Below are positions 3,264 through 36,311 of a stretch of 64,000 bases of DNA, one piece after another. Origin of the DNA: an uncultured Gammaproteobacteria bacterium (GTDB lineage: Bacteria; Patescibacteriota; Microgenomatia; 2-02-FULL-39-11); assembly GCA_964544585.1 (NCBI GenBank), contig CAZJBV010000002.1:3468-67467 (forward strand), written 5' to 3'. The position numbers and the translations under genes are program-made. Numbering within the stretch: position 1 is the stretch's first letter; the number at the start of each line of letters is the position of its first letter. Under the pieces are notes generated by a model, which saw only the letters and a program-made list of their open reading frames with translations, was not told where the DNA came from and did no database searches.

Positions 3264-3602
3264 ATGCAATTTTTGGTGATTGGAAAAGACGGAAAGGATA
3301 AAAAAGCTAAGCAGCGAAGAATAGCAGCAAGACAAGCGCATCTTGCTCTTGGCGACAAGATGGAGGAGGAAGGTACCAGGTGGTACGGAGCTGTCCTAAT
3401 GGATGAAAAAAACAACATGATTGGTTCTATGGCAGTCATGGATTTTCCCTCAGAAGAAAAACTTCAAGAATGGCTGAAAAAAGAACCATATGTAACAGGA
3501 AAAGTATGGAAAACAGTAGAAGTAATAAAATGCAACGTCAAAAATCCTTGGAAATTTAATAGGCCACAATCGTTCTTTGAATCGAGGAAAAATGATAAAT
3601 GA
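3264..3602 (+). CDS. YciI-like family protein (dimeric alpha/beta barrel)
   Basis: MQFLVIGKDGKD...RRIAARQAHLALGDKMEEEG...YGAVLMDE...MIGSMAVMDFPSEE.LQEWLKKEPYV.GKVW..VEV fits the YciI-like signature. Confidence 0.7.
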   Translation: MQFLVIGKDGKDKKAKQRRIAARQAHLALGDKMEEEGTRWYGAVLMDEKNNMIGSMAVMDFPSEEKLQEWLKKEPYVTGKVWKTVEVIKCNVKNPWKFNRPQSFFESRKNDK

Positions 3603-8615: not shown

Positions 8616-10848
8616 AAAAAATCCTCCCCTTATTTTATTCACTGTCATTGTGCTCTTTTTTTTCTACCCCCTTATTCTCCAAGGTAAAATTCCTATTCCG
8701 GCGGATACGATTGTCGGTATGTTCCATCCATTCAGAGATGTTATTTGGGATAATTTTACTACCGGAGTGCCTTTTAAAAACTTTCTCATTACAGACCCAG
8801 TCAGACAGCAGTATCCCTGGCGAAGTCTTTCTATGGAACTAATTAAAACGGGACAACTTCCTCTGTGGAATCCCTATTCTTTTTCCGGAACTCCGCTTCT
8901 TTCAAATTTCCAATCAGCCGTATTTTATCCCCTGAATATTCTTTTTTTTCTCCTCCCATTTCCCTTGGCGTGGGCAATATTAATTCTTCTTCAGCCTTTG
9001 CTCGCCGGATTTTTTCTCTATTTATATTTGCGCAATTTCAATGTATCAAAAACTGGCAGTATAATAGGAATGCTAGCATTTTCCTTTTCCGGCTTTTTTA
9101 TCGCCTGGCTTGAGTGGAATACGGTAATCCAGACCATTTTATGGTTGCCCCTTATTTTGCTCTCAATCGAAAGGATAACTTCACAGAATAGAAAATTTAT
9201 TTGGAGTTTGATTTTTATCTTTTCACTTTCTTCTTCATTCTTTGCCGGCCACCTCCAAGTATTCTTTTATTCTTTTTTGCTAATCCTGGCATATATTATC
9301 TCAAGAATTATTATCCTTAAAGCAGATAGATTCAAAATCTTTTTATCTTTTATCTTTTATCTTTTATCTTTTATCTTTTTAACCTCAATCCAATGGCTGC
9401 CGACTGTCCAATTCATATTACACTCAGCCCGCGAATTTGATCAGGGACTATATACAAAAGAAGGATGGTTTATTCCTTGGCAAAACCTGATTCAGTTTCT
9501 TGTGCCCGATTTTTTTGGCAACCCCTCAACCGGAAATTACTGGGGAGTCTGGAATTATGGCGAATTTATTGGCTACATCGGAATTCTACCGCTTATATTT
9601 TCCATTTACACTCTTGTCTTTATCAAAAGTAAAAAAGTTCTATTTTTCGGATGTTTTCTTTTTTTAGCCCTTTTATTTTCTCTCCCAAATTTTGTTAGTT
9701 TTATTCCCTACAAGTTGGGTCTTCCGGCAATTGCCACATCACAGCCAACGCGTTTACTTTCAATCACCGTATTTTGCCTGAGCATTTTGGCAGCCCTTGG
9801 ATTTGATCATCTTCTAAAAAACATTGCCAAAAAAGAATCGAAAAAGCAAATATTGACTATTTTAGGAGCCTTTTTCCTTACATTTCTCTTTTTATGGATA
9901 ATTATCTTTGCTAATCACCTTACTATAAGTCAAAGAAATCTTCTACTACCCACAGCGTTATTTATGCTTTCTTCGATAACTCTCTATATATTAACTGTTA
10001 AAACCAAAGTTCATCTCACCAGGTTTGCTATCTATTTGATTATATTTATTACTATAGTTGATCTCCTGCGCTTTGGCTGGAAATTTACCCCTTTTTCCGG
10101 AAGTTCATGGCTTTATCCCGACACCAAAATCCTTGACTATTTAAGGACAAATAGTCAAAACCATCGCTTCTTATCAATCGATCGTCGCATCATGCCCCCA
10201 AACTTTTCCATCATGTATAAATTACAAGACGTTTCCGGTTACGATCCCCTCTATCTTAAAAGATATGGAGAATTTATTTCTGCCTGGGAAAGAGGAAAAC
10301 CAGATATCTCTCCCGCCTCCTTCAATCGCATCATCACTCCCACCAATATCTCTTCTCCCATCACCAATCTTTTGGGCATAAAATATATCTTATCATTAGA
10401 CGAAAGAAAAGAGACTTTCTTAAAACTTGTCCAAAAAGAAGGGGAGACTCGAGTGTACGAAAACACACTTGTTTTTCCACGTGCATTCTTTGTTTCCAAA
10501 GTAATTTTTTCAAAGGACGATCAGGACGAGATTGAAAAAATATATGAGAATATCAACTCACTTGCAACAAAGGTAACGACGCAGGAGACGATCAATATTG
10601 ATTATGACCCGATTGGCAAAAACGAATCCGCATCAATAATTAAGTACGGGGAGAATCAAATAACACTCAAGACAAATTCCTCCAAAAAAAGACTTTTAAT
10701 TATCACCGATATATACTACCCTACGTGGAAAGCTTACATAGATGGTTCAGCAGAGAAAATTTATAAAGTCGATTACACCTTCAGAGGCATAGTTGTTCCT
10801 CCAGGAAAACATACAGTTATTTTAAAAGATAATCTTTTGCTACAATAG
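8590..10848 (+). CDS. YfhO-family polytopic membrane protein (GT-C type glycosyltransferase candidate)
   Basis: 752 aa, N-terminal about 500 aa multi-TM, soluble C-terminal domain ending ..DIYYPTWKAYIDGSAEKIYKVDYTFRGIVVPPGKHTVILK, the hallmark YfhO C-terminus. Contains a (TTTTATC)5 repeat at 9338-9380. Confidence 0.65.
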   Translation: MKNLMHFFKKNPPLILFTVIVLFFFYPLILQGKIPIPADTIVGMFHPFRDVIWDNFTTGVPFKNFLITDPVRQQYPWRSLSMELIKTGQLPLWNPYSFSGTPLLSNFQSAVFYPLNILFFLLPFPLAWAILILLQPLLAGFFLYLYLRNFNVSKTGSIIGMLAFSFSGFFIAWLEWNTVIQTILWLPLILLSIERITSQNRKFIWSLIFIFSLSSSFFAGHLQVFFYSFLLILAYIISRIIILKADRFKIFLSFIFYLLSFIFLTSIQWLPTVQFILHSAREFDQGLYTKEGWFIPWQNLIQFLVPDFFGNPSTGNYWGVWNYGEFIGYIGILPLIFSIYTLVFIKSKKVLFFGCFLFLALLFSLPNFVSFIPYKLGLPAIATSQPTRLLSITVFCLSILAALGFDHLLKNIAKKESKKQILTILGAFFLTFLFLWIIIFANHLTISQRNLLLPTALFMLSSITLYILTVKTKVHLTRFAIYLIIFITIVDLLRFGWKFTPFSGSSWLYPDTKILDYLRTNSQNHRFLSIDRRIMPPNFSIMYKLQDVSGYDPLYLKRYGEFISAWERGKPDISPASFNRIITPTNISSPITNLLGIKYILSLDERKETFLKLVQKEGETRVYENTLVFPRAFFVSKVIFSKDDQDEIEKIYENINSLATKVTTQETINIDYDPIGKNESASIIKYGENQITLKTNSSKKRLLIITDIYYPTWKAYIDGSAEKIYKVDYTFRGIVVPPGKHTVILKDNLLLQ
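9338..9380 (+). repeat. (TTTTATC)n heptanucleotide microsatellite, about 5 units, inside the CDS (encodes FLSFIFYLLSFIFL)
   Basis: Direct reading: tcttttt atcttttatcttttatcttttatcttttatcttttt. Confidence 0.85.
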
Positions 10849-10862
10849 AACTCATACAAAAT

Positions 10863-12530
10863 ATGACCGGAAAAGGACGCTGGTTTTTCATCGCAATTAT
10901 TATTCTTGCGGCAATTTTGCGCTTTTATAAACTAGGTGATATTCCTGTCGGACTTGAATGGGATGAAGTAGCTTTAGGCTACGACGCATACTCTATCTCC
11001 CAAACAGCAAAAGACCAGTTTGGTACATTTCTTCCCCTTACTTTTCGTTCTTTAGACGATTATAAACCTCCAATTTACATTTACGCTACGGTTCCCGGTG
11101 TAGCCCTTTTTGGCCTAAACGACTTTACCACCAGATTTCCCGCAGCCTTTTTCGGGACAGCCGCAGTCATTTCTACATTTTTTTTAGCCCAAGAACTTAC
11201 AAAATCTAAAAAAATTGCCCTTATAGCTTCTCTTTTCCTAAGTTTCTCCCCCTGGCATCTCCAGTTTAGTCGGGCTGCATTCGAAGTAAACATTTCAGAC
11301 GCGATTACCATTGCCGCGGTGGCCTGCTTTCTCATCGGCCTCAAAAAACCTAAAATATTCATTCTTGCGGCAATACTTTTTGGTCTAGACCTCTTTTCTT
11401 ATCATTCCACCCGCGTCGTTGCTCCAATTATTATGCTGACTTTATTTGTATTATTTAATAAAAGACTCCCCTCCAAAAAATATATCACGATCTTTTTTAT
11501 CGTCTTTGCAGCTTTCTTTTTGGCAGTACTTCCCATCCTCCGCTCAAAAGAGGCACAAATTAGATTTATTGCCACCAACATCTTTACTCCAGGAGCACGG
11601 TATCTGGACGATAAAGATTTGGAAAAAGTTTTCCTGGAAAAAAGGCTGGAAGATACCAAAGCAGGATTCGAAACAGCCGGAAAAATATTTCATAATCAAA
11701 GACTTAAATATCTTGACTACGATACTTTAAAAAAAGCGTTCAACAACTACATCTCAAATTTCGGCTTTGATTATCTTTTTATTAAAGGCGACGTCCCCCT
11801 TCACCACGCTCCCGGATTTGGCCTCTTATACATCGCCGAGCTTCCCTTTATTCTTATTGGTTTGGGGTACATACTTTTAAAAGCCCGTAGCCCATATACA
11901 CTCTTGATTCTTATCTGGATGCTAATCGTTCCACTTCCCAGTGCAGTCACCCGGCAGGCGCCCCACGCGGTCCGCACAGAGCTATTTTTACCCACCTACC
12001 AAATTCTTTCGGCTTTAGGACTTTTTGCTATTTATTCGCTTGCTAAAAAGCAATCTCTTTGGGTCTATTTAACAAGCTTAAGTGCAATTACTACAATCCT
12101 CTCTGTAAATCAATCATTTTATCTCCACCAGTATTATGTCCACACCAATTACGAGCTCTCAAAATACTGGATATATGGGAGAAGAGAGGCGGTCGAATTT
12201 ACCGAAAAAGAAAAAAATAATTATGAAAATGTCACCGTTTCGCTCAATGCAGATATGCCCTATATTTTCTGGCTATATTATTCAAAATATCCTCCCAAAG
12301 AATATCTTAAAAAAGGTGGCACCGTATCCGGTGGTTTTGCCGACCAAAGAAATTCCTTTGACAAATATCTATTCCGAAATTTTAATTATGAGGAAGAAAA
12401 AAAACTATCAAAAAAGCAACTTCTTATCGGTACTAAAAAAGATTTTCCACCCGATATAAATCCCCTAAAAATAATAAAGTACATCAATGGAGAAGAAGCT
12501 TTATTTATAGTAAAGACGGATGGGTCATAA
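10863..12530 (+). CDS. GT-C fold membrane glycosyltransferase, family 39 (PMT/ArnT-like, PMT_2), paralog 1 of 8
   Basis: N-terminal ..L.WDEVALGYDAYSISQTAKDQFGTFLP (periplasmic-loop DE motif), about 11 TM, C-terminal soluble domain, 555 aa. Confidence 0.75.
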   Translation: MTGKGRWFFIAIIILAAILRFYKLGDIPVGLEWDEVALGYDAYSISQTAKDQFGTFLPLTFRSLDDYKPPIYIYATVPGVALFGLNDFTTRFPAAFFGTAAVISTFFLAQELTKSKKIALIASLFLSFSPWHLQFSRAAFEVNISDAITIAAVACFLIGLKKPKIFILAAILFGLDLFSYHSTRVVAPIIMLTLFVLFNKRLPSKKYITIFFIVFAAFFLAVLPILRSKEAQIRFIATNIFTPGARYLDDKDLEKVFLEKRLEDTKAGFETAGKIFHNQRLKYLDYDTLKKAFNNYISNFGFDYLFIKGDVPLHHAPGFGLLYIAELPFILIGLGYILLKARSPYTLLILIWMLIVPLPSAVTRQAPHAVRTELFLPTYQILSALGLFAIYSLAKKQSLWVYLTSLSAITTILSVNQSFYLHQYYVHTNYELSKYWIYGRREAVEFTEKEKNNYENVTVSLNADMPYIFWLYYSKYPPKEYLKKGGTVSGGFADQRNSFDKYLFRNFNYEEEKKLSKKQLLIGTKKDFPPDINPLKIIKYINGEEALFIVKTDGS

Positions 12531-14197
12531 TGGTTAAAAATATTATTTTGATCTTTATTCTTCTTCTTGCCCTCATTCTGCGAATATTTCGTGTCGATAC
12601 AAATCCTCCCGCTCTTTATTGGGACGAAGTAGCGATGGGTTACAATGCCTACTCAATTATCAAAACCGGGGCCGACGAATACGGACACAAACTACCCTTT
12701 TTCTTCGAATCATTTCAGGATTACAAACTTCCTGGATATATATATTCTCTGATTCCGGGAATCCTACTTTTTGGAGTAAGTCCATTAACGATCCGTCTTC
12801 CTTCTATTTTGTTTGGCTTCATTAGTATTATCGGAATTTATGTTCTTGGTAAAAATATTCTGGGAACAAGAGTTGGATTATTATCAGCGTTTATAGTAAG
12901 TATCATCCCCTGGCACATCCAATTGACTAGGGTAGGTTTTGAAGTCAGCGGTGGATTTGCCCTTCTCATTTTTGGCCTCCTTTTTCTCTGCCTCGGTAGA
13001 CAAAAAAAACTCCATCTTTATATTGGTGTCTTTTTGCTTATTCTCTCCCTATCTTTTTATAATGGCCTAAGAATCATCGTCCCCGTCGTTCTCATTTCCT
13101 ATTTGCTTTTTTTTAGCAGAAGTCTTCAACTATCAATAAAAGATTTACTCTGGGGGACGATCACGCTGATATTGCTAAGTCCAGTTATTTATCAATTTAT
13201 GAATCCTGATGCTCTCGTAAGATTTAGATATACCAGCATTTTTAGTGACCCGACACTTCTCGAAGAATCGATAAATAAAAAAGAATCCGTCAACAATTTT
13301 TTAGGTAAAGTATGGTACCACCGGTATAGGGTGTATGGAGAAAAAATTGCCAGGAATTATTTTGCCCACTTTTCTCCTGATTTTCTTTTATTTGATAGCG
13401 GAGAAAATGTTCGCCACAAAGTATCGGGGATTGGCCTTCTCTATCTTTGGACCGTGCCTTTTTTAATATTTGGACTTTATACTCTCATTCACCAAAGAAA
13501 TGAGTCTTTAAAACTGATTCTTCCTTTACTACTTGCCGCCCCAATTGCCTCTTCTTTTACCATTCCCTCTCCCCACGCTCTTCGTTCATTTCCACTTCTC
13601 ATTCCCCTTATTTTCATCATCGCCTTTGGAATAACGAGTCTCGTCAAGCACCTGAAAGGTGGCAGGAATGCCTACCTGCCGGCAGGCAGGGACTCCTTTC
13701 AGGTGATGGAATCTGCATTTATAATCCTCATATTGGTATTTGCTGCTACAAGTCTTTCCAGATATTTATTCGAATTTTATTTTTTCTATCCCAAACACAC
13801 TAGTAGAGATTGGGCATACGGCTATAAAGAAGTATTTGAAAAAGCAAAAAAATTTGAGGCAAGGGCAGACACCATATTTATATCTGGAAGATATTGGCGC
13901 CCATACATTTTTGCCTTATACTATCTCGACATTGACCCAAAAACATATCAAAAAAATCCCACTCATTCCCAAATTGGCAAGTTTATATTTGGACACGCCG
14001 ATTATGACGTGTCCGATCCGTTTTATGATTATAAAACTTATGATAATAATATAGTTCACAAGCTGCGCCAAAAAGGAGGAAATAACTATCTCTTCCTTTC
14101 TCCCCAAGAAACAAAAGCTGGGGATATAGTTATTGATAATATTCAGGATCTAAAAAGGGAGACGCTTTTCAACATTACCAAGAGCAGAAGTAAATAA
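12530..14197 (+). CDS. GT39/PMT-family GT-C glycosyltransferase, paralog 2, carrying an in-frame palindromic element insertion
   Basis: YWDEVAMGYNAYSIIKTGADEYGHKLPF motif. ATGA overlap with the previous gene. Element at 13649-13706 is translated as HLKGGRNAYLPAGRDSFQV. Confidence 0.75.
   Translation: MVKNIILIFILLLALILRIFRVDTNPPALYWDEVAMGYNAYSIIKTGADEYGHKLPFFFESFQDYKLPGYIYSLIPGILLFGVSPLTIRLPSILFGFISIIGIYVLGKNILGTRVGLLSAFIVSIIPWHIQLTRVGFEVSGGFALLIFGLLFLCLGRQKKLHLYIGVFLLILSLSFYNGLRIIVPVVLISYLLFFSRSLQLSIKDLLWGTITLILLSPVIYQFMNPDALVRFRYTSIFSDPTLLEESINKKESVNNFLGKVWYHRYRVYGEKIARNYFAHFSPDFLLFDSGENVRHKVSGIGLLYLWTVPFLIFGLYTLIHQRNESLKLILPLLLAAPIASSFTIPSPHALRSFPLLIPLIFIIAFGITSLVKHLKGGRNAYLPAGRDSFQVMESAFIILILVFAATSLSRYLFEFYFFYPKHTSRDWAYGYKEVFEKAKKFEARADTIFISGRYWRPYIFALYYLDIDPKTYQKNPTHSQIGKFIFGHADYDVSDPFYDYKTYDNNIVHKLRQKGGNNYLFLSPQETKAGDIVIDNIQDLKRETLFNITKSRSK
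13649..13706. repeat. GC-rich nested palindromic element (type 1): CACCTGAAAGG-[CCTaCCTGCCGGCAGGCAGG]-CCTTTCAGGTG, in-frame inside the CDS
   Basis: Outer 11-bp inverted repeat plus inner 20-bp palindrome, read directly. The GC-rich island contrasts with an AT-rich gene. Confidence 0.9.
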
Positions 14198-23421: not shown

Positions 23422-25034
23422 AGAAAGTCATATTTTTTTTATTGATTGTTGTTTTATCTCTCGCTTTGCGATTGTATAATCTATCCACCAATCCTCCATC
23501 TCTCTACTGGGACGAAGCTTCCCTGGGTTACAACGCCTACTCCATTCTTACTTCCGGCAAAGACGAACACGGAGAATTCTTCCCCCTGGCCCGCTTTATT
23601 GCTTTCGGCGATTTCAAACCACCCGGATATATTTATGCCGCGGCTTCTTCAATTGCCCTCTTTGGTTTAAATGAATTTGCCATCCGCTTTCCCTCATTTC
23701 TTTCCGGAACTCTATTGGTTCTTGGCGCATATCTTCTCACATCAAAGCTCCTGGGAAACACAAAAATTGCCCTCATTGCCGCATTTATAATGTCGATCTC
23801 ACCCTGGGGAATCCATTTTTCCCGCGCCGCCTTCGAAGCAAATATGGCTGCTACTCTAAACCTCTTTGCCATTTATTTTTTTATTTGCCAAAAAAAAAGA
23901 AGTTGGTATCTGGTTCTTTCTTTAATTTTCTTTATTCTTGCATTTTATACATTCAACGCCAACAGAATAATTTCTCCACTTCTAATAATAATTCTCTCTT
24001 TCTTATTTTGGCGTGATACTTTCAAAAATTGGCGCTGGGCAATTGCCGGAATTATTATTTCGGTATTTTTGCTATTACCTAGTGCCAAATATCTTTTAGA
24101 TAGAGAGAGTAGAATTCGTTTTCAGGAAGTCTCTATCTTCAACAACCTTGAAACTGTCAAAACGTCAAATGAAAGAATAGAAAGAGAAGGAGGGAACGTT
24201 ATCGCCAGGGTTCTTTACAACAGAAGAGTTTTATTTAGCCTTGATTTTTTAAAACATCTCACAGACAATTTTAACCTTCGCTTTCTTTTTACCCAGGCAG
24301 ACGCAAATCCCAGACTTTCTATAGAGGGGTTGGGTCTTCTTTATTTTTATGAATTACCATTTCTTATTATCGGAATAATATATCTATTAAAAACCAATCG
24401 TAAAGCCGCACTTTTAATTTTCACATGGATGATAATAGCGGCAGTTCCAGCTGGAACTGCTAGAGAAACACCACATGCGCTGCGCACCATTTCCATTCTT
24501 CCCACCTATCAAATCCTTATAGCTTCTGGCGTTTTGGCTCTATATTATTGGGTTAAAAATCTATCTGGCAAAAAAATACTGCCCATTAGTATAACTACCC
24601 TGACTATAGTAATCGCCTTTCATCTATATTATTTTCTTCACATGTATCTTATCCATTATCCCGTAAACTGGCCCGCTCAGTGGCAATATGGATATAAAGA
24701 GATGGTTCGATTTGTCCTCCAAAATAGGCAAAACTACGATAAAATTTATGTAACAGAAGCGCTTGGCCGTCCCTATATTTATTTTGCTTTATTTACGCCA
24801 TATAGCCAAGACGATTTCCAATTCAGACGCGATGCCTCTCGCGACTGGTTTGGTTTTTGGACAGTTCATTCACTAGATAATATCTATTTTAGTATCCCCC
24901 AAAGTCAGGAGTTAAAAGGCAAAGTCCTTTTAGTTGAGGGCAGAGACGCAATACTTCCACCAGACTTTATAATTATAAAAGAAATAAAAGAGCCAAACGG
25001 GAACGTAGTCTTTAAGATCGCCCAAAAAATATGA
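23418..25034 (+). CDS. GT39/PMT-family GT-C glycosyltransferase, paralog 7
   Basis: SLYWDEASLGYNAYSILTSGKDEHGEFFPL motif, 538 aa. Confidence 0.75.
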   Translation: MKKVIFFLLIVVLSLALRLYNLSTNPPSLYWDEASLGYNAYSILTSGKDEHGEFFPLARFIAFGDFKPPGYIYAAASSIALFGLNEFAIRFPSFLSGTLLVLGAYLLTSKLLGNTKIALIAAFIMSISPWGIHFSRAAFEANMAATLNLFAIYFFICQKKRSWYLVLSLIFFILAFYTFNANRIISPLLIIILSFLFWRDTFKNWRWAIAGIIISVFLLLPSAKYLLDRESRIRFQEVSIFNNLETVKTSNERIEREGGNVIARVLYNRRVLFSLDFLKHLTDNFNLRFLFTQADANPRLSIEGLGLLYFYELPFLIIGIIYLLKTNRKAALLIFTWMIIAAVPAGTARETPHALRTISILPTYQILIASGVLALYYWVKNLSGKKILPISITTLTIVIAFHLYYFLHMYLIHYPVNWPAQWQYGYKEMVRFVLQNRQNYDKIYVTEALGRPYIYFALFTPYSQDDFQFRRDASRDWFGFWTVHSLDNIYFSIPQSQELKGKVLLVEGRDAILPPDFIIIKEIKEPNGNVVFKIAQKI

Positions 25035-26635
25035 AAAAAATAATTATCCTTTCTATTTTTCTTCTTGCTTTTATCCTTCGTTTTTTCCATCTCGGACAAA
25101 ACCCTCCTTCCCTTGATTGGGACGAAGCTTCTCTCGGTTACAACGCATTTAGCCTCCTCAAAACTGGCAGAGATGAATATGGAGAGTTTCTCCCGCTTTC
25201 AATTCGTTCCTTTGGAGACTACAAACCTCCGCTTTATACCTATTTATCAATACCATTTGTAGCAATTTTCGGCCTCAACGAATTTTCAGTCCGATTTATT
25301 TCTGCATTATTCGGTACATTAACTACACTTGTTGTTTACCTTCTTGTCAAAAAAATATTTCCCGGAAAATCCTATATCTTTTATCTCTTATCTTTTATCT
25401 TTTTCGCCCTCTCGCCTTGGCATATCCAATTCTCCCGCATCGCCTTCGAAGCCAATCTCGCCCTCTTTTGGTTTATATTTGGAATTTATCTTCTCTTCAA
25501 AGGATTAGAAAAGGGACCATTTTTATTCATTGCATCATTTTCATTTGCTCTTTCCATGTATTCCTATCACAGTCCCAGGCTTCTTGTGCCTTTTCTTTTA
25601 GTTGGTTTTTCTCTCATCTTTAGAAAGTCGATAAAACAAAATTTAGCCTGGGCGGCAGTAGGCGCCATAACGATTATTTTATTAATCCTGCCAATTATTT
25701 ATCAGTTGACCTCAACCTCCGCAAGGCTAGGATCAGTCACTCTCTTTAATCCTTATGAAAGACTGGGGTCATCAATAAGAGATTTAGAGTACGATATGAA
25801 AAGAAATGATAACTTTGGCAAAATTCTCCATAACCGTCGCCTAATTTATGCCAAAGAGGCTTTCGCAGGATATTTAGATCACTTCAATTTTGACTTTTTG
25901 TTTTTGATAGGTGATCCACCCGGTAGACACCACGCGGCCGGCATGGGCATGCTCTATTTATGGGATTTCCCCTTTATTATTTTAGGTCTTGTCTATTTTC
26001 TCAAACATAGGGATAAGAGCGTTTCTTTCTTATTTTTATGGTTTCTCATTTCCCCCTTGGCATCTGCTATCACCACTGGTACTCCCCATGCAGTCCGAGC
26101 CATCTTTTATCTCCCTACATACCAGATTTTTTCCGCAGCTGGTGTAATTTTCTTTCTTACGTGGATCAAAAATCTTAACAAAAATATTAGATATTTTATA
26201 TTTATCTTTTATCTTTTATCTTTTATCTTTAATTTCTATTATTATCTCCGCATGTATTATATTCATACTCCAGTAGAGTACTCCTCGTGGTGGCAATACG
26301 GCTATAAACAAGTAGTTGAAGAAGTTTCAAAAAGGCAAAATCAATACGACAAAATCATCGTTACCTATAAATATGATCAACCCTATATATTCTTTCTTTT
26401 TTATCAAAAGTTCGATCCATCGGTATATCAAAAAAAATGGAGCGAAAGCAAAATAGAGCGAAGCGTTCGCTCATATGGAAAATATGAATTTCGCAACATT
26501 GAATGGTCAAAAGATAGCCAAAGCCCCAATACTCTCATCGTCGGAACCCCAGACGAAATACCAGAAGATATTAGTACCCTAAAAGAAATTAAATTTCTCG
26601 ACGGCACTCCCGCATTTAAGATAGTTGGGACCTAA
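25031..26635 (+). CDS. GT39/PMT-family GT-C glycosyltransferase, paralog 8; contains two (TTTTATC)n tracts
   Basis: SLDWDEASLGYNAFSLLKTGRDEYGEFLPL motif, 534 aa. Confidence 0.75.
   Translation: MKKIIILSIFLLAFILRFFHLGQNPPSLDWDEASLGYNAFSLLKTGRDEYGEFLPLSIRSFGDYKPPLYTYLSIPFVAIFGLNEFSVRFISALFGTLTTLVVYLLVKKIFPGKSYIFYLLSFIFFALSPWHIQFSRIAFEANLALFWFIFGIYLLFKGLEKGPFLFIASFSFALSMYSYHSPRLLVPFLLVGFSLIFRKSIKQNLAWAAVGAITIILLILPIIYQLTSTSARLGSVTLFNPYERLGSSIRDLEYDMKRNDNFGKILHNRRLIYAKEAFAGYLDHFNFDFLFLIGDPPGRHHAAGMGMLYLWDFPFIILGLVYFLKHRDKSVSFLFLWFLISPLASAITTGTPHAVRAIFYLPTYQIFSAAGVIFFLTWIKNLNKNIRYFIFIFYLLSFIFNFYYYLRMYYIHTPVEYSSWWQYGYKQVVEEVSKRQNQYDKIIVTYKYDQPYIFFLFYQKFDPSVYQKKWSESKIERSVRSYGKYEFRNIEWSKDSQSPNTLIVGTPDEIPEDISTLKEIKFLDGTPAFKIVGT
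25374..25410 (+). repeat. (TTTTATC)n-like heptanucleotide tract (imperfect) inside the CDS, encoding ..IFYLLSFIFF..
   Basis: tatcttttatctcttatcttttatcttttt read directly. Confidence 0.7.
26209..26232 (+). repeat. (TTTTATC)n heptanucleotide tract inside the CDS, encoding ..FIFYLLSFIFNF..
   Basis: tttatcttttatcttttatcttttatcttt read directly. Confidence 0.8.
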
Positions 26636-26668
26636 AATTCATTCATGATACAATTATCTAGCCTAAAC

Positions 26669-26755
26669 CACCTCGGACCTGCCTGCCGCCCTGCCTGCCG
26701 GCAGGCAGGGCAGGCAGGTTGGTGGCCCCGCTTAGCAGTGACTCCTCCGAGGTGG
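26669..26755. repeat. GC-rich nested palindromic element (type 2, long), intergenic, ending 13 nt before the start of the next gene
   Basis: CACCTCGGA-CCTGCCTGCCgccCTGCCTGCCGGCAGGCAGGgCAGGCAGG-...-CTCCTCCGAGGTGG. Outer inverted repeat CACCTCGGAG/CTCCGAGGTG, inner duplicated-arm palindrome. Confidence 0.9.
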
Positions 26756-26768
26756 GTGAATCAAAACT

Positions 26769-29161: not shown

Positions 29162-29907
29162 AAAAAGTAATTGTGGTTATGCCTGCTTATAACGCAGAAA
29201 AGACGATTGAGAAGACATACTGGGATATTCCTAAAAATGTCATTTCCGAGGTCATAGTCGTAGATGACGATAGTCGTGACAAAACAGTTGAGATTGCTAA
29301 ACGTCTAAAACTCCCGGTCGTAGTCCACCCCAAAAATCTCGGTTACGGTGGTAATCAAAAGACATGCTATAAAAATGCACTGGAAAGGCATGCTGATATC
29401 GTCGTCATGATTCACCCCGATTATCAATACGACGCCACCCTAACCGTTGACCTAATTAAACCAATTAAAGAAGGAAAAGCAGATATCATGCTTGGAAGCA
29501 GAATCCGCTCGAGACAGGAAGCATTGGCAGGCGGCATGCCATTATATAAATACATCAGTAATAGAGTTCTGACTCTTATCGAAAATATTATTCTCGGCCT
29601 AAACCTTTCCGAATATCACACCGGCTTTAGAGCTTTTAAAAGAGAAGTTTTATATAAACTTCCCCTCAAGAATTTTTCCAATGACTTTGTCTTCGACCAA
29701 GAAATTTTAATTTCTGCCCACGCCGCCGGCTTTAAAATGGGCGAAATCGCAGTCCCAGTTCGCTATTTCAAAGAAGCTTCATCAATAAATTTTATTAAGT
29801 CTGTTGTTTATGGAATAATGATCCTTGCAACATTGGCAAAATTTATTCTATTTAAATTAGGCGTCCCAAGCAATCAATTTAAATTCGCAAAGTCATCGCC
29901 CAAATGA
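29158..29907 (+). CDS. GT2 polyprenyl-phosphate sugar synthase (Dpm1/GtrB/CsbB-like)
   Basis: VIVVMPAYNAEKTIEKT.......EVIVVDDDSRDKT..IA......V.....N.GYGGN....... ..DIVVMIHPDYQYD. 249 aa. 4-nt overlap with the downstream YfhO-like gene. Confidence 0.7.
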   Translation: MKKVIVVMPAYNAEKTIEKTYWDIPKNVISEVIVVDDDSRDKTVEIAKRLKLPVVVHPKNLGYGGNQKTCYKNALERHADIVVMIHPDYQYDATLTVDLIKPIKEGKADIMLGSRIRSRQEALAGGMPLYKYISNRVLTLIENIILGLNLSEYHTGFRAFKREVLYKLPLKNFSNDFVFDQEILISAHAAGFKMGEIAVPVRYFKEASSINFIKSVVYGIMILATLAKFILFKLGVPSNQFKFAKSSPK

Positions 29908-31547
29908 AAAAAGATATTTTCGTTATTATTCTTATTTTTGTCATCTCTTTCTTTACCCTCAAAGACCTTTGGAAGCCCGAATTCTATACTAGTCACGATG
30001 GAGCCCATCAAGTCGTCCGTCTTTACTATTGGGATCAAGCCATCAAGGATGGACATATTCCCCCAAGATGGGTAGGAGGGCTCCTCAATGGTGCGGGTTA
30101 CCCTCTCTTTATTTTTTCCTATCATATGCCTTGGATTATTGCCGAGCCATTCGTCCTGGCAGGCTTTTCTATTATTGAGGCAATAGAGATCACTTTTTTT
30201 CTAGGCTTTGCCCTCTCCGGCACAACCATGTATATTCTTCAAAAGGCGCTTTACGGTCGATTTGGAGCTTTGGTGGGTACAACTATCTATCTTTTTGCTC
30301 CCTACCGCTTCTCCAACATTTTTGTTAGGGGTGCCATAGGCGACGCAACCACTTTTATTTTTATACCACTTTTATTTTTATCTCTCTATAAAATTGTTCA
30401 GGAAAAAAGTATTTCCTGGATTTATGTCACTTTAGGGGCTCTTTCACTTGCCGCCATACTTCTTTCTCACGCCATGGTCTTTCTCTTTATTTTTCTCGCC
30501 ATGTTTTTATTCTTTTTTTATTTTTTACCGCATGCTACCAACAAAAAAATATTTTCTCTAAATACACTCTTTATTATTGCATTTGGTTTTGCCATATCAA
30601 GTTATTACTTTTTACCATCGCTTCTTGAAAGAAATTTAACCATGTTTCCGCAAGTTATAAAACAAGTTTTTAGCGGACAGACATTTCTCACCATTCGCGA
30701 TCTTCTCTACACTCCCTGGGGATATGGTTTACTCGACGCCAAAATTGGTCGCATGTCTTTTCAAGTAGGTATAGCTCAATGGATTGCATTCTTAATAAGT
30801 CTTTTAGTATTGGTTTGGGAAATAATCAAGAGGAAAACAAATAAGCTTGCATTATTTTATGTATTACTATTTTTATTATCCATATTTATGATGCTTGAAA
30901 TATCTTATCCAATCTGGTTATTAATAGAAAAAATTGCCATCATTGATTTTTCCTGGCGTATTCTCCCCTTGACAGTATTTTCCGCATCAGTATTGGCTGG
31001 ATTTATCATTTCAAGATCTCGCATAGGAATTATTTTCGGAATCTTATTAATTTCCCTTGCAGTCTATGGAAACAGAAATCACTTACGCATTAATAAGCCT
31101 CTAGATTGGGATATACCCTTTTATTTAACACTCGAAAAGACTACAAATAGCTACGATGAATATACCCCTCTTTCCGCCCGTCAAGATAAAATAAAGGTAA
31201 AACGGCCCAAAATTGACTTAGTTGGCGTCAAAGGTACTTTTAAAATTTTGAAAAATTCATCAAATAAAGTTCTTGCCGAAGTTAATACCGAAACGAGTGG
31301 ACATGTCAGCATAAATAATATCTACTATCCTGGCTGGGAAATAAAAGTCAACGGTATAAAAACCAATATCTTCGACTATTATGGATTTCTAGGTATCAAC
31401 GTCCCACGAGGATTTTCCAAAATCGAAGCAAAATTTACCGAAACTCCCTTACGAAAGGCAGGTAATATAATTACTCTTGTATCCATGTTATTCTTATTTT
31501 ATAAAGTATTTAGATCATTCAAAAAGAAAAAGAAATTACATGCATAA
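29904..31547 (+). CDS. YfhO-family polytopic membrane protein (GT-C candidate), second copy
   Basis: Multi-TM N-terminal region. C-terminus ..NIYYPGWEIKVNGIKTNIFDYYGFLGINVPRGFSKIEAKF is the YfhO signature. Directly downstream of the CsbB-like GT2, as in csbB-yfhO of Bacillus. Confidence 0.6.
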   Translation: MKKDIFVIILIFVISFFTLKDLWKPEFYTSHDGAHQVVRLYYWDQAIKDGHIPPRWVGGLLNGAGYPLFIFSYHMPWIIAEPFVLAGFSIIEAIEITFFLGFALSGTTMYILQKALYGRFGALVGTTIYLFAPYRFSNIFVRGAIGDATTFIFIPLLFLSLYKIVQEKSISWIYVTLGALSLAAILLSHAMVFLFIFLAMFLFFFYFLPHATNKKIFSLNTLFIIAFGFAISSYYFLPSLLERNLTMFPQVIKQVFSGQTFLTIRDLLYTPWGYGLLDAKIGRMSFQVGIAQWIAFLISLLVLVWEIIKRKTNKLALFYVLLFLLSIFMMLEISYPIWLLIEKIAIIDFSWRILPLTVFSASVLAGFIISRSRIGIIFGILLISLAVYGNRNHLRINKPLDWDIPFYLTLEKTTNSYDEYTPLSARQDKIKVKRPKIDLVGVKGTFKILKNSSNKVLAEVNTETSGHVSINNIYYPGWEIKVNGIKTNIFDYYGFLGINVPRGFSKIEAKFTETPLRKAGNIITLVSMLFLFYKVFRSFKKKKKLHA

Positions 31548-33237
31548 AAAAATATTTTTGTGGATAAACAATCATCGAAAACTTTTGTTAATATTTGCCT
31601 TTATTTTTATAAGTTTTTTAGTTAATTCAATTCACACCCAGTTTCCCGACGAATTCGATAATATATTCGGTGGATACCTCATTAACCAAGGAAAGCTTCC
31701 CTATATTGGTTTTTTCACCCATCACAACCCTGGTGCCTACGTACTAGCATCTTTTATTACCATGTTTACAGAAAGAAGCTTCGTATTTTTCCGAATTATT
31801 TTTTCTTTTATTTTATTTATTTGGTTTGTTGTTAGCTTTTTTATAATTAAAAATAGACTAAAAGACCAAAATCCAATTTATTTTATTCTTTATGGAGTAC
31901 TCATCGCCCTGGGAAGTACATACTGGTGGGGACAAATGTTATTGTCAGAAACGATCGTCGGCCACCTTCTAGTTCCCGTAATGCTTATTATGATTGGCAA
32001 GGATCTCATGCAAATTCGATTTGATATAAAAGATATATGGATAATATCTCTTCTTACATTCTTGTCTCTTTTTACATCCCTCACCTATATTTATTTTATT
32101 CCTTTTGTATTACTAATTACTTTTTATTTTTATTTAAGGGATAATAAACCCTTTACCCCCAAAAACATAATTACCCCACTTATTATATTCACTTTCCCTT
32201 ATCTTATCTTTTTTATATACCTTATCTTAACAGGATCATTATTTGAGTTTTATTTTGCCTCAATTTATTACAACGTAAATTATTATATTTACAATTTCCC
32301 CAAGGTTGCAGGTATACATTCACACCACCCTGTTCGATACGCCATCTCAATTGCCAGAAATTCCATAGATGGCATTTCGGCTCTTCTTACCCAAATTCCT
32401 TCATTCAATCTCTCTTATCCCATGAACATTTCTCTAGCCCTAGGAAATCTCATCGCCATTATTTATTTTCTCCTAAAACGTCGCTTTGGCCTGACTTTAC
32501 TCTTAACTAGCATGATGATATATACAAACGCCAGAAGCGAGCCACTCAATATTCATGAAACCGATTTTCATGCCACCGTGTATATCATGCTCACCATCGC
32601 CACCACTATGTATATTTTTTCTAAAATAAAAAATGATTTAGATAAAAAGTATCCTTTTTCATTTAAAAGCATTTTTGCCTTCTTATTTATTCTTGGCGGA
32701 GTATACTGGCTTTTTGCCGCCATGTTTTGGGGCAATAGTTTTATGAATAAAGCCTATGATAAATTAATGGGTAATGCTCCTCTTATTTACGATAGACCTC
32801 AAACTGGACGCATACTAAACACACTCCTTACCAAAGATGATTATTATTGGATAGGACCCTTTGAACTCCAGGAACTATTATTTATAAATGGTCAACAGGC
32901 ATCAAAATACTTTTGGTTTCTTCCCGCCAACAGTCGCGATGAAAAAATTAAAAGGGAAATAATTGCCGATTTTGACAAAACCAAACCAAAAGTCATCCTC
33001 TTTAAAGATTGGTGGTCTAATTTTGGCGTCACACCGGAACAGTTCAACACAACGATTGTCACTTACCTTGACAAAAATTATTTCCAGTTAGAAGATCTCA
33101 AAAACGAAGGTTTAGAATTTACCGTAAATATGCCCCGCGAAAGAGATTTCGATTTTGAGAATGAACTCTATTTTAGAAAAGATCAAAAAGAAAAAATAGT
33201 CGCCGAATTATTTTCTAAAAATTTAATTCAAAAATAG
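31540..33237 (+). CDS. Polytopic membrane protein, hypothetical (N-terminal about 400 aa TM-rich, soluble C-terminal domain)
   Basis: ORF. ATG at 31540 overlaps the previous stop (ATGCATAA). The ORF track extends in-frame to 31477, but that would overlap the upstream gene by 70 nt. Confidence 0.4.
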   Translation: MHKKIFLWINNHRKLLLIFAFIFISFLVNSIHTQFPDEFDNIFGGYLINQGKLPYIGFFTHHNPGAYVLASFITMFTERSFVFFRIIFSFILFIWFVVSFFIIKNRLKDQNPIYFILYGVLIALGSTYWWGQMLLSETIVGHLLVPVMLIMIGKDLMQIRFDIKDIWIISLLTFLSLFTSLTYIYFIPFVLLITFYFYLRDNKPFTPKNIITPLIIFTFPYLIFFIYLILTGSLFEFYFASIYYNVNYYIYNFPKVAGIHSHHPVRYAISIARNSIDGISALLTQIPSFNLSYPMNISLALGNLIAIIYFLLKRRFGLTLLLTSMMIYTNARSEPLNIHETDFHATVYIMLTIATTMYIFSKIKNDLDKKYPFSFKSIFAFLFILGGVYWLFAAMFWGNSFMNKAYDKLMGNAPLIYDRPQTGRILNTLLTKDDYYWIGPFELQELLFINGQQASKYFWFLPANSRDEKIKREIIADFDKTKPKVILFKDWWSNFGVTPEQFNTTIVTYLDKNYFQLEDLKNEGLEFTVNMPRERDFDFENELYFRKDQKEKIVAELFSKNLIQK

Positions 33238-33276
33238 TTCTATAAACAAACTGATTAAGACAAAATTGACTTAAAA

Positions 33277-33377
33277 CACCTCGGACCTGCCTGCCGCCCT
33301 GCCTGCCGGCAGGCAGGGCAGGCAGGTTGGTGGCCCGCCAGCAACTGCGTAGCTGTGGGCGGGACTCCTCCGAGGTG
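33277..33377. repeat. GC-rich nested palindromic element (type 2, longest copy), intergenic, ending 15 nt before the start codon
   Basis: Identical to 26669-26730 over the first 62 nt, then diverges, and re-converges at GGGACTCCTCCGAGGTGG. Followed by AGGAATCAAAACTCATGAAAAT. Confidence 0.9.
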
Positions 33378-33392
33378 GAGGAATCAAAACTC

Positions 33393-34181
33393 ATGAAAAT
33401 TTCAGTTGCAATAGCCACATACAACGAGGAACAAAACATCGGTAGATGTCTCAAAAGCGTTGCCGATTGGGTTTCCGAAATTGTAGTCGTTGATGGAGGA
33501 TCCACCGATAAAACTAGAGAAATAGCCAGGCAGTACAAAGCAAGAGTCATCAAAACAGATAACCCACCCATATTTCATATTAATAAAAATAAGGCCATAG
33601 ACGCATGTCGGGGAGACTGGATATTACAGCTTGACGCCGACGAAGTAGTCACGCCTCCCTTAAAAGAAGAAATACTCAAAACGATCAACAATCGGTTTGA
33701 TGGTTTCTGGCTTCCCCGCAAAAACTTTTTTTTAGGGAAATTTTTGACCAAAGGAGGTCAATATCCCGACTACACTCTTCGGCTTTATAGAAAAGGTAAA
33801 GGCAAACTCCCAGCCAAATCAGTCCATGAACAAGCCGCTATCGTTGGGGAAGTTGGCTTTTTACATAACCCCTTGGAGCATTTCCCTTATCCAGATTTTT
33901 CTCATTACCTGGATCATTTCAACCGCTACACTACTATCCTTGCGACTGAATTTGCCAGCCAAAATGTTTCTTTAAACTTTTTAAATACGATTATTTATAT
34001 GTTCATAAAGCCCAAATTATGGTTTTTGTCTACATATTTAAGGCATAAAGGATTTATAGACGGATTTCCGGGATTGGTTTTTTCATTCTTTTCTGCTCTT
34101 CGATTTCCCACAGCCTATATCAAATATTGGGAAATGTCGGTCAAAGGCCGATCCGCCTTTGGCGGAAATAAAAAGGCATGA
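33393..34181 (+). CDS. Family 2 glycosyltransferase (GT2), paralog of 5016 and 6829
   Basis: MKISVAIATYNEEQNIGRCLKSVADWVSEIVVVDGGSTDKT and LQLDADEVV. The start is taken at the Met just after the palindromic element. The ORF track's 33327 start lies inside the element. Confidence 0.75.
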   Translation: MKISVAIATYNEEQNIGRCLKSVADWVSEIVVVDGGSTDKTREIARQYKARVIKTDNPPIFHINKNKAIDACRGDWILQLDADEVVTPPLKEEILKTINNRFDGFWLPRKNFFLGKFLTKGGQYPDYTLRLYRKGKGKLPAKSVHEQAAIVGEVGFLHNPLEHFPYPDFSHYLDHFNRYTTILATEFASQNVSLNFLNTIIYMFIKPKLWFLSTYLRHKGFIDGFPGLVFSFFSALRFPTAYIKYWEMSVKGRSAFGGNKKA

Positions 34182-35170
34182 AAGTTGCACTTATCAAGCC
34201 CCCCCTGATTGGCCATACAATGCGTGGCACCGGAAAATATACCACAGAATTATTCAAAGCCCTCAAAAAACAAAATATTGATATCGATCTGGTTGAATAT
34301 CATTCCAACCTCAATTCCTTTGACCTGGTTCACTACCCCTATTTTGACCCCTTTTTTCTTACACTTCCATTATTTAAAAAAAGACCAACAATTGTCACAG
34401 TCCACGATCTTATTCCTCTTGTCTTTCCAGAGCATTTCCCTAAAGGCATAAAAGGTAACATAAAATGGCAAATGCAAAAGTTTGCCTTAAAAAACGTAGA
34501 CGAAATAATAACTGATTCAAATGCATCCAAAAAAGATATTATCAGACTCATCCCATACCCTGAAAATAAGATCAATGTTATTTATCTTGGTGTAGGCAAG
34601 GAGTTCAGGCAAATTAAAGACTCAGCAATCCTTTCCAAAACAAAAAATAAATATTCATTGCCAGATCAGTTTATACTTTACGTTGGAGATCGAAATTATA
34701 ATAAAAATGTAGATGGCCTTTTAATGGCTTTCCAGAAGATTGCAAAAGATTATTCCAATATTTATTTGGTATTAATCGGCAAAGGCTTCACTGATCTTCA
34801 AACCCCACCGCATGTTCTCAAATTTCATTCATTAACAAGCGAGGAGATGGTACACATATATAATCTTTCCAGAGCATACATTCAACCATCTTTTGCCGAA
34901 GGTTTTGGTTTACCGGTATTGGAGGCAATGGCTTGCGGCTGTCCCACAGTAGTCAGCAATACCTCAAGTCTTTCTGAAATAAAGGCTCCCAAATCAGTTT
35001 TAATCGATCCAAAAAATGTCGAAAGCATAAAGAGAGGAATTATAAAAGTATTAACAAGTAGTCCACAGCAAATTAACGAAATAATAATTGATGGTCTAAA
35101 AAACGCCCAACAATTTTCCTGGGATAAATGCGCCCAAGAAACAATCAAAATATATAAGATATATGTTTAA
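34178..35170 (+). CDS. Family 4 glycosyltransferase (GT4)
   Basis: ..FAEGFGLPVLEAMACGCPTVVSNTSSLSEI C-terminal GT-B motif. Confidence 0.8.
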   Translation: MKVALIKPPLIGHTMRGTGKYTTELFKALKKQNIDIDLVEYHSNLNSFDLVHYPYFDPFFLTLPLFKKRPTIVTVHDLIPLVFPEHFPKGIKGNIKWQMQKFALKNVDEIITDSNASKKDIIRLIPYPENKINVIYLGVGKEFRQIKDSAILSKTKNKYSLPDQFILYVGDRNYNKNVDGLLMAFQKIAKDYSNIYLVLIGKGFTDLQTPPHVLKFHSLTSEEMVHIYNLSRAYIQPSFAEGFGLPVLEAMACGCPTVVSNTSSLSEIKAPKSVLIDPKNVESIKRGIIKVLTSSPQQINEIIIDGLKNAQQFSWDKCAQETIKIYKIYV

Positions 35171-36311
35171 GCGGATTTTATTAGTATTTAGCATCTGGAG
35201 AATATTACTTTTCCTGCTAGCTTATTTGGCTACTTTTATTTTACCCTTTACACCCCGCTTTCCCTATTCAGAAGCGCTTCTTATTCCATCCCTACTCCCT
35301 CCTTGGATATGGAGCTTTGCCAATTTTGATGGGGTACACTATATTACCATCGCCACCCGAGGTTATAGCGCCCAGTTTACTCAAGTATTTTTCCCCTTAT
35401 ACCCACTCCTTATTAGTCCAATTGTTTATTTATTTTCAGACAAATTCGCCATCATTTCAGGTTTAATAATTTCCAATTTAGCCTTCTTGCTATCTCTTTA
35501 CTTATTTACCAAACTAATTCTTCTTGACTATAGTCCAAAAATAATGTTTTGGACTCTCATATTTTTATTGACATTTCCTACTTCTTTCTATTTTGGCGGA
35601 CTCTACTCCGAAAGCTTATTTTTTCTTTTTATAATTGGTAGTTTTTACGCCGCCCGAAAAAAAAGGTGGTGGTTGGCAGGAATATTGGGTGCGCTAGCAA
35701 GTGCCACCCGTCTAGTAGGTATATTTTTACTCCCCGCACTATTATGGGAATATTATCATCAAAATAAAATAAAAAATAAAAATCTTTTATCTTTTATCTT
35801 TTATCTTTTATCTTCTCCAATTTTATATCTCGTTCCCCTCGGACTAATAAGCTATATGTTATATTTGCAACTAGCCTTCGGCGACTGGCTCTATTTCTGG
35901 CATATCCAACCGATCTTCGGTGCCGAAAGAAGTGGTACTAGCATAATCCTACTTCCACAAGTATTTTTTCGTTATCTAAAAATTCTTCTTTCAGTTCCTT
36001 TCACCATTGAATCGTTTTTTATTCCCCTTACCGAATTATTATCAACTACATTGGCCATCATGTTACTTTTCGTCGCTTGGAAAAAACGAGTCAGAATTTC
36101 TTATATTATCTTTTCATCTCTTGCCGTGTTAGTACCTACTTTGACTGGAACATTTTCCAGTATGCCCAGATACATTCTCATAGCTTTCCCCCTTTATATT
36201 GTTTTAGGATCAATAAAATCTCCCTTCGTAAAGATAATTTTACTAACTGTCGCAAGCCTCCTTTTAGGATTTTTGCTAATCCTATTTACTAGAGGTACAT
36301 GGGTGGCGTAA
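35163..36311 (+). CDS. Polytopic membrane glycosyltransferase candidate (GT-C; PIG-V/DUF2029-like mannosyltransferase family)
   Basis: ..W.W.FANFDGVHYITIATRGY motif near the N-terminus, resembling the 'FD..HY..IA..GY' box of PIG-V/DUF2029 proteins. About 10 TM. Contains a (TTTTATC)n tract. Confidence 0.4.
   Translation: MFKRILLVFSIWRILLFLLAYLATFILPFTPRFPYSEALLIPSLLPPWIWSFANFDGVHYITIATRGYSAQFTQVFFPLYPLLISPIVYLFSDKFAIISGLIISNLAFLLSLYLFTKLILLDYSPKIMFWTLIFLLTFPTSFYFGGLYSESLFFLFIIGSFYAARKKRWWLAGILGALASATRLVGIFLLPALLWEYYHQNKIKNKNLLSFIFYLLSSPILYLVPLGLISYMLYLQLAFGDWLYFWHIQPIFGAERSGTSIILLPQVFFRYLKILLSVPFTIESFFIPLTELLSTTLAIMLLFVAWKKRVRISYIIFSSLAVLVPTLTGTFSSMPRYILIAFPLYIVLGSIKSPFVKIILLTVASLLLGFLLILFTRGTWVA
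35782..35814 (+). repeat. (TTTTATC)n heptanucleotide tract, about 4.5 units, inside the CDS, encoding NLLSFIFYLLSS
   Basis: atcttttatcttttatcttttatcttttatcttc read directly. Confidence 0.85.

Follow-up and report, generated by a model that had tools for sequence, protein, structure and literature searches.

Short tandem arrays of the 7-nt unit TTTTATC lie inside membrane glycosyltransferase genes on a 64,000-nt stretch of DNA from an uncultured bacterium (GenBank assembly GCA_964544585.1, contig CAZJBV010000002.1, positions 3,468 to 67,467 of the forward strand; hereafter the window), whose GTDB lineage is Patescibacteriota; Microgenomatia; 2-02-FULL-39-11. These (TTTTATC)n tracts are genuine non-random microsatellites at the DNA level. 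They probably belong to a lineage-wide class of heptanucleotide microsatellites that are generated and homogenised by slippage within permissive segments of glycosyltransferases, with the reading frame kept by selection, and the evidence speaks more for such a feature, driven by mutation and filtered by selection, than for an ON/OFF switch tuned to high frequency.

A pattern search of the window with the (TTTTATC)3 21-mer (up to 2 mismatches allowed) and Tandem Repeats Finder both located the repeat at four sites, on the + strand in every case (Table 1), and 100 dinucleotide shuffles of the window yielded 0 matches to the pattern. A tolerant lag scan of the full 64 kb recovered the same four tracts at lag 7 and no others, and found no tracts at lags 5, 6 and 8-11. 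An earlier reading of the window made from its letters alone (the sequence-only reading) had placed the tracts in four membrane-protein coding regions; the four tracts were all confirmed, with coordinates corrected by a few bases, but the genes number three, namely a YfhO gene, a PMT_2 gene with two tracts, and a PIG-V-like gene. Its guesses at the host families (YfhO, a PMT/GT39 paralog, and a PIG-V-like protein) were borne out by Pfam, and its view of the hosts as surface-glycan genes agrees with their position in a 64-kb glycan-biosynthesis locus. The array peptides are hydrophobic (Kyte-Doolittle hydropathy 1.5-2.6). The conserved TSIQWLPT motif directly follows the array peptide of YfhO, the 25375-25403 array lies in the helix ahead of the SPWHI motif in PMT_2 paralog 8, and both arrays of this paralog fill hydrophobic helices without gaps relative to 8 paralogs in an 11-paralog alignment.

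The survey sample comprised 80 metagenome loci around YfhO orthologs, which together with one further locus, L121 (GCA_040960175.1), amounted to 1.10 Mb; arrays were counted when perfect and of at least 3 units, and the sampled DNA was almost all glycan genes, so that the array counts hold within glycan loci only. Period 7 gave 44 perfect arrays, 30 of them of at least 4 units, as against 4 for period 5, 2 for period 6, 0 for period 8 and 1 for period 9. With the window added (82 loci, 897 open reading frames (ORFs), 1.15 Mb), 47 period-7 arrays were observed in coding sequence versus 0.13 expected from codon shuffles, whereas the observed and expected numbers were 32 and 26.5 for period 4, 4 and 2.6 for period 5, and 0 and 0.03 for period 8. 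The array excess is thus specific to period 7, with periods 4, 5 and 8 at the null, and short 7-nt arrays are about 360 times commoner than expected inside glycosyltransferase ORFs of this uncultured lineage of the Candidate Phyla Radiation (CPR). All but one of the 47 arrays were within intact ORFs of at least 200 aa and of family-typical lengths. Their hosts were YfhO (17), GT2 (12 + 5), PMT_2 (6 + 1), PTPS_related (3), GT4 (1), PIG-V (1) and, for the remaining array, a PMT-like membrane protein without a Pfam match; every array host in the survey therefore belongs to glycosyltransferase families, in a sample made up nearly entirely of glycan genes. Two housekeeping loci (42 kb in total) had 0 arrays, which is too little DNA for judging glycan specificity. 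Many unit sequences were encountered, including TTTGTTA, AATTTCC, AAATCAA, AAATTGG and AATTTCA, and the arrays sit in helices and also in hydrophilic loops (e.g., ISNFQFPISNFK and IKNQKSKIKNQK).

The compositional artefact that the sequence-only reading had weighed against its own proposal is excluded by the codon-shuffle comparison and its restriction to period 7. More broadly, it is extremely improbable that the arrays arose as a by-product, whether of AT-rich codon use in F/I/L/Y-rich helices or of a heptad peptide motif under selection. Such an origin would suit the hydrophobic peptides in helices whose length is conserved among paralogs and orthologs, and the similar peptide found without a DNA repeat in relatives at one site (a 453-aa membrane protein, see below). 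Nevertheless, the shuffles preserved both amino-acid and codon usage, many arrays lie in hydrophilic loops, the peptides change between orthologs while the 7-nt periodicity stays, and heptad-peptide selection would yield a 21-nt rather than a 7-nt periodicity.

Homologous sites in other genomes carry the periodicity with other units. The YfhO array helix has a constant length in 60 orthologs (consensus ILLFVIC(F/Y)LLFxLITSIQW), and the ortholog P0006 of locus L121, 56-57% identical, has a perfect (TTTTATC)5 in the same helix. The two genes share 59.8% nucleotide identity, and where their residues agree the codon is the same in only 44% of cases, yet the array is their longest identical run (38 nt), indicating that the repeat is maintained on the DNA and not via the peptide; among 122 orthologs, the two proteins rank second and fifth in each other's list of nearest neighbours, and convergence is inseparable from shared ancestry here. 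Beyond L121, 10 further YfhO orthologs have arrays of other units (TTTGTTA, ATTTACT, ATTCTTA and others). Across the 122 orthologs, lag-7 self-identity of this helix was at least 0.7 in 12, with at least 5 unit types (the units being TATCTTT, TGTTATT, TACTATT, CTTAATT and TTTTATT), and no other lag attained 0.7. In addition, a perfect (TTTGTTA)5 in locus L175 corresponds to (CTGTTTATTGTTTG)2.5 in the 83% identical ortholog of locus L152, with the length unchanged, and the family consensus of the helix, LLFVIC(Y/F)LLF, is itself the translation of a (TTTGTTA)n array.

The same pattern was found in a 238-aa dolichol-phosphate-mannosyltransferase-like GT2: in at least 7 loci, the segment between DDGSTD and NxGKG is made of 7-nt repeats (34 nt; units AATTTCC, AATTCGA, AATTTCA, AATTCAA and AATTAAA). 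Among its best 120 orthologs ranked by score, a ranking that would miss truncated proteins, the commonest segment length is 37 aa (64 of 120), and most 37-aa segments have the heptad pattern I-x-N-x-x-x-x-I-x-N, of which at least 10 variants occur; 2 of the 120, the 231-aa variants P0297 and P0329, lack exactly 7 aa at the array, which equals 3 units, and the longer segments contain peptides of the GC-rich insert type described below. For PMT_2, counterparts of the 25375 site are a GAAATTG array in L154 and a CAATTTT array in L167, and the helix homologous to the 26201 site holds (TTTCTTT)4.3 in L145, with arrays of the adjacent loop in L188 and L154. Array peptides vary freely between orthologs (e.g., ISNFQFP, IRNSKFE and IQNSKLK) while the 7-nt periodicity is kept. 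Moreover, unit identity within arrays is 0.93, as against 0.71 for the same position compared between orthologs; for the variable unit positions alone, the two values are 0.83 and 0.33. Since the units of one array resemble each other more than they resemble those of orthologs, concerted evolution by repeated misaligned copying within arrays is indicated, which implies that the arrays would be actively re-homogenised and that strand misalignment would be required.

We infer that slippage is the cause of the arrays and that frameshifted cells are present at low frequency. One-unit strand misalignment during replication or repair would create the arrays and keep re-homogenising them, giving unit turnover, and purifying selection would preserve the total length and the reading frame of the array segments. 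The encoded peptide may need only to stay hydrophobic in a helix or compatible with a loop, and for this reason would drift with the unit.

Table 1. Heptanucleotide arrays, their host genes and palindromic inserts (window coordinates unless a locus is named).
Feature	Position	Strand	Location or host	Details
(TTTTATC)5.6	9341..9379	+	YfhO transmembrane helix, aa 250-264	perfect, 100% match; peptide IFLSFIFYLLSFIFL
(TATCTTT)4.1	25375..25403	+	PMT_2 paralog 8	90% match, one T>C mismatch; peptide SYIFYLLSFIFF
(TTTATCT)4.3	26201..26230	+	PMT_2 paralog 8, helix in C-terminal half	perfect, 100% match; peptide FIFIFYLLSFIFNF
(ATCTTTT)4.7	35782..35814	+	helix of PIG-V-like mannosyltransferase	perfect, 100% match; peptide NLLSFIFYLLSS
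Mini-array (AAAATAA)2.4	35766..35782	+	adjoins the 35782-35814 array upstream	encodes KIKNKN loop; Tandem Repeats Finder
YfhO-family GT-C membrane glycosyltransferase, 752 aa	8590..10848	+		Pfam PF09586, E = 3.6e-31
PMT_2/PMT (GT39/GT83-like) glycosyltransferase, paralog 8	25031..26635	+		Pfam; one of ~11 tandem paralogs
PIG-V-like mannosyltransferase (Mannosyl_trans2), 382 aa	35163..36311	+		Pfam PF04188, E = 1.3e-08
453-aa membrane protein, C-terminal part	11..880	+		no Pfam match; fifth array in upstream part of gene
Palindromic inserts	L153 5516-5570; L175 3758-3787; L167 13403-13451; L152; L150 13537-14262		proteins P0328, P0357, P0259, P0266	

As 7 and 3 have no common factor, a 7-nt repeat of any sequence reads as one and the same cyclic heptad in every frame, and each array of the window runs through all three codon phases. 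The sequence-only reading rightly stated that the repeat encodes one cyclic heptad in all three frames, which holds for any 7-nt repeat, and that (TTTTATC)n has no stop codon in any forward frame; its statement that the repeat is always read in the same phase is uninformative, all three phases being present within each array. In the complement, (GATAAAA)n, every frame contains TAA, and coding thus forces the sense-strand location. Simulated gain or loss of 1 or 2 units cut the product to 261-285 aa for the YfhO array, to 156-199 or 395-419 aa for the PMT_2 arrays and to 225-261 aa for the PIG-V array, in line with the earlier expectation that a unit change truncates the enzyme, here in all three genes. 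A simulated change of 3 units made the protein longer or shorter by 7 residues. Each array is accordingly a latent frameshift hotspot, because slips of 1 or 2 units truncate and slips of 3 units add or remove 7 residues.

These properties raise the question of adaptive contingency loci, in which reversible one-unit slippage would toggle glycosylation steps and provide heritable glycan heterogeneity against phage or host pressure in episymbiont-like CPR cells. The unit length is not a multiple of 3, the arrays lie within ORFs of surface-glycan enzymes, all hosts being glycosyltransferases, and changes of 1 or 2 units truncate early; about three quarters of the arrays lie in the first 40% of the ORF (hand count from listed positions). 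The persistence of arrays at the same sites over deep divergence, with unit turnover, would be most easily reached by loss and regain through viable OFF states, and heptanucleotide precedents exist in neuO and in hmw1A and HI1369 of Haemophilus influenzae. Nonetheless, this explanation is rather unlikely. No array was OFF in consensus sequences (0 of 47), whereas neuO is OFF in 65.6% of genomes; the tracts are short, with a sharp ceiling at 39 nt; unit numbers agree in 3-6 independent assemblies representing different wells and runs; arrays occur in just 1 of the 11 PMT_2 paralogs of the window; and the DNA repeat has decayed in two orthologs of the 453-aa protein, indicating that mutability is not consistently maintained.

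The evidence on ON/OFF variation is as follows. None of the 47 arrays in the consensus sequences of the 82 loci disrupts its ORF, including about 30 in genes not selected for intactness, and all 122 YfhO orthologs analysed were full length, as were all 120 GT2 orthologs, whose ranking by score would miss truncated proteins. The population of the window is represented by assembly GCA_016186845.1 and by Logan contigs of runs SRR12113383, 384, 419, 420, 422, 424 and 430, which match the window at 99.98-100% identity. Over the 25375 array, Logan contigs of three runs have the identical sequence; the 26201 array is spanned by a single contig, L001, which shows no difference there. At the YfhO and PIG-V arrays, the Logan contigs of the 7 runs end about 30 nt into the array, where the unit number is unreadable, because the k=31 graph has 31-mers common to the arrays. 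A population from the Hainich aquifer has four arrays of 33, 25, 34 and 29 nt, and each of the three that are multiply covered had the same unit number in 3-6 assemblies from two wells, including a 2%-diverged strain. Array length was 3-5.6 units with none above 39 nt, which is below the length of known high-slippage heptanucleotide loci (8-53 units). A split YfhO gene in locus L204 was considered as an array frameshift and rejected, since a run of N marks a gap in the assembly there and the flanks are duplicated. Taken together, the short mid-gene tracts, the conserved segment length, the 47 of 47 intact ORFs and the identical unit numbers across consensus assemblies lend no support to the classic contingency locus that the sequence-only reading had proposed.

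Comparison with known systems bears on the same question. Bacterial genes as a rule suppress simple sequence repeats (SSRs) in mid-coding positions, and most known heptamer repeats lie between genes. In Haemophilus, Neisseria and Campylobacter, glycosyltransferase genes for lipooligosaccharide, lipopolysaccharide and capsule carry tetranucleotide or homopolymer SSRs that can act as a potential ON/OFF switch. The Microgenomates arrays are similar in having a non-triplet unit inside glycosyltransferase ORFs, but the SSRs of these pathways have other unit lengths, longer tracts and documented polymorphism. A parallel with a 7-nt unit is neuO, the CUS-3 prophage O-acetyltransferase gene of Escherichia coli K1, which has 3-53 units and, like the window genes, places a 7-nt unit in the coding sequence of a surface-glycan enzyme, encodes a heptad peptide and is full length only at in-frame unit numbers (PMC13001214). 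Unlike the 5'-end repeat of neuO, which varies between and within strains, the window-type arrays lie in mid-gene helices or loops, are invariant in the available assemblies and are always ON. In H. influenzae, hmw1A has (AATTTTG)14 in its ORF, an HI1369 homologue has (AACAACC)8-13, and the hmw promoters have (TGAAAGA)13-38, with the observed frameshifts attributed to tract length (PMC2651432). Those heptanucleotide tracts are likewise associated with surface determinants, being in or beside surface-protein genes, but they are long (8-38 units), strain-variable and often out of frame in a pathogen with a known phasome, and lack the conserved-length arrays, homologous sites and unit turnover seen in the Microgenomates arrays.

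A fifth array, (TTTTATC)3.6, lies outside the window, 32-56 nt ahead of its first base, at 9045-9069 of locus L206; L206 is the same genome as the window, with a 100% identical overlap. The array is in the upstream part of the gene for the 453-aa membrane protein. In its L121 and L127 orthologs the peptide is conserved (FFFLSYIFYLLS and FFFLSFILYILY) on non-repetitive DNA, showing that arrays can decay while the peptide persists. The five known arrays of the window genome share one unit, whereas in five other loci with 3-4 arrays (L131, L185, L130, L147 and L154) the units are all different. This uniformity is what would be expected if a helix-coding cassette of 21-39 nt had spread by gene conversion, template switching or transposition, and the peptide-bearing, non-repetitive relatives of the 453-aa protein would be compatible with a nearly synonymous overwrite in the window genome. 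Even so, ectopic copying of this kind is quite improbable as the origin of the arrays. The four array sites of the window show no similarity beyond the repeat, no inverted repeats and no target-site duplication, and no length change relative to paralogs or orthologs; homologous sites in other genomes carry other units, indicating that the sites pre-date the TTTTATC unit; and (TTTTATC)5 at the YfhO helix is common to L121, at 57% protein identity. At most, such copying accounts for the uniformity of the unit and not for the existence of the arrays, and the mobile helix-coding repeat suggested by the sequence-only reading is not borne out, its sites having no shared flanks or target duplication and their orthologs having other units.

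Several observations weigh against slippage-generated, slippage-homogenised microsatellites. The lengths of perfect period-7 tracts, scored over the coding sequences of L121-L201 and the window in various gene families, are bimodal: a tail decays over 14-25 nt, numbers drop to a trough at 26-29 nt and rise to a mode at 30-34 nt, and no tract is longer than 39 nt; the trough and mode are unexplained by plain slippage birth-death. The arrays replace helices or loops at unchanged length, whereas simple stepwise expansion predicts otherwise. No slippage event is directly observed; no 7-, 14- or 21-nt indels were found in closely related locus pairs, which were few; and unit numbers are identical in every replicate consensus assembly spanning an array, a form of sequence in which minor variants are invisible. 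In addition, one unit at five sites may need an extra process, such as ectopic conversion.

Outside the Microgenomates, the search of genome contigs with the (TTTTATC)3 21-mer gave at least 119 loci, mostly from Bacteroidota. Among the matches listed, 17 of 127 lie inside ORFs of at least 100 aa and 110 of 127 outside, and the repeat extends up to 15.7 units. Other units in the outgroup loci are likewise in excess at period 7 only, which agrees with the literature on heptamer over-representation. Heptamers are over-represented among the long SSRs of prokaryotes, for which polymerase slippage has been proposed as the explanation (PMC4679880, PMC4692102). The heptameric class takes in the repeats of Mrazek 2007 (as cited in these sources), cyanobacterial heptamer repeats, GGGAATC of Xanthomonas and TAACTGA of Beggiatoaceae (PMC4692102, PMC4679880). 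The Microgenomates arrays share with this class the period-7-specific excess and a preference for about 4 units (PMC4692102, PMC4679880), but the class is mostly intergenic and under-represented in ORFs, whereas 46 of the 47 arrays are in frame inside ORFs. Long (TTTTATC)n tracts of 10-15.7 units were noted in L007 (751-860), L033, L104, L082 and L042, from Chryseobacterium spp. and [Clostridium] fimetarium; the L007-type arrays are mostly outside long ORFs or just 5' of gene starts and may be promoter-type variable repeats. The Bacteroidetes metagenome-assembled genome (MAG) Kiruna_bin-02612 has (TTTTATC)n on at least 9 contigs. Also, locus L048 of an unclassified MAG (CAYPJE010000025.1, - strand) has two (TTTTATC)3 tracts, at 857-879 and 3332-3352 of the reverse-complemented locus, each at relative position 0.05-0.06 of an ORF whose size was found to be 413 aa for both tracts, which may be the same in-frame phenomenon.

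Short GC-rich palindromes are inserted in frame in or beside heptamer arrays of GT2 and PMT_2 genes (Table 1), for example the 24-nt CCCTCGGCTTCGCTCGGGGCGAGC, which occurs twice in L153; their peptides include PLGFARGE, LRSGRA and GFAGQA. Similar selfish elements, likewise palindromic and in frame, include the Rickettsia palindromic elements (RPEs). The 7-nt unit was considered as the footprint of a target-site duplication by these palindromes (L153, L175, L152 and L167) and this origin was rejected: once the two 24-nt inserts are taken out, 34 nt of the L153 array remain, which equals the ortholog length, and there is thus no 7-bp duplication.

The entire window is a single glycan-biosynthesis locus with nearly all genes on one strand, comprising a flippase, GT2, GT4, YfhO, about 11 tandem PMT_2, PIG-V, epimerases, aminotransferases and a Wzt-type ABC transporter. 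The YfhO of the window has 4324 homologs, the closest at 57% identity, and homologs of the locus proteins carry the source names Microgenomates, Gottesmanbacteria, Levybacteria or Patescibacteria. The YfhO, PMT_2 and PIG-V host proteins, encoded on an NCBI contig of 197,736 bp, are singletons in 90%-identity clusters, and hence offer no variants to compare. The approximately 11 PMT_2 (GT39/GT83-like) paralogs lie head to tail at 10863-33237 with overlapping stop and start codons and are 16-39% identical to paralog 8, an unusually large single-family expansion for a small-genome lineage. A divergent PMT_2-like paralog (ORF 29904-31547) holds a perfect 17-nt tandem duplication (ACCACTTTTATTTTTAT x2) at 30348-30381 and a 27-nt repeat of 2.3 copies at 30459-30519. 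A GC-rich structured element of about 90 nt (CACCTCGGACCTGCCTGCCGCCCTGCCTGCCGGCAGGCAGGGCAGGCAGG...TCCGAGGTG) occurs twice, at 26668-26757 and 33276-33370, in the sole sizeable intergenic gaps of the PMT_2 region, with a predicted fold of -61.3 kcal/mol (z = -5.5) and no Rfam match; an Rfam scan of the window as a whole likewise gave no match. The Logan contig L001 ends within the first copy of this element.

A full-text literature search retrieved no paper with both Patescibacteria and phase-variable, and among the papers listed for Candidate Phyla Radiation combined with either phase variation or simple sequence repeats, none dealt with CPR; the array class is apparently undescribed in Microgenomates-type CPR glycan genes. 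In practical terms, the arrays break k=31 assemblies, and a one-unit error would lead to a gene being mis-annotated as a pseudogene. For the biology of the lineage, the arrays are a concrete phase-variation candidate in CPR and would illustrate, in nature, how slippage of a microsatellite can overwrite stretches of protein and give rise to new peptide sequence. We consider it doubtful that they form a heptanucleotide phasome of the Microgenomates, in which dozens of in-frame arrays in YfhO, PMT_2, GT2 and PIG-V would cycle ON and OFF by one-unit slippage; if true, it would explain the persistence of the arrays, their unit turnover and the conserved ON length, and would be the first contingency-locus system in CPR.

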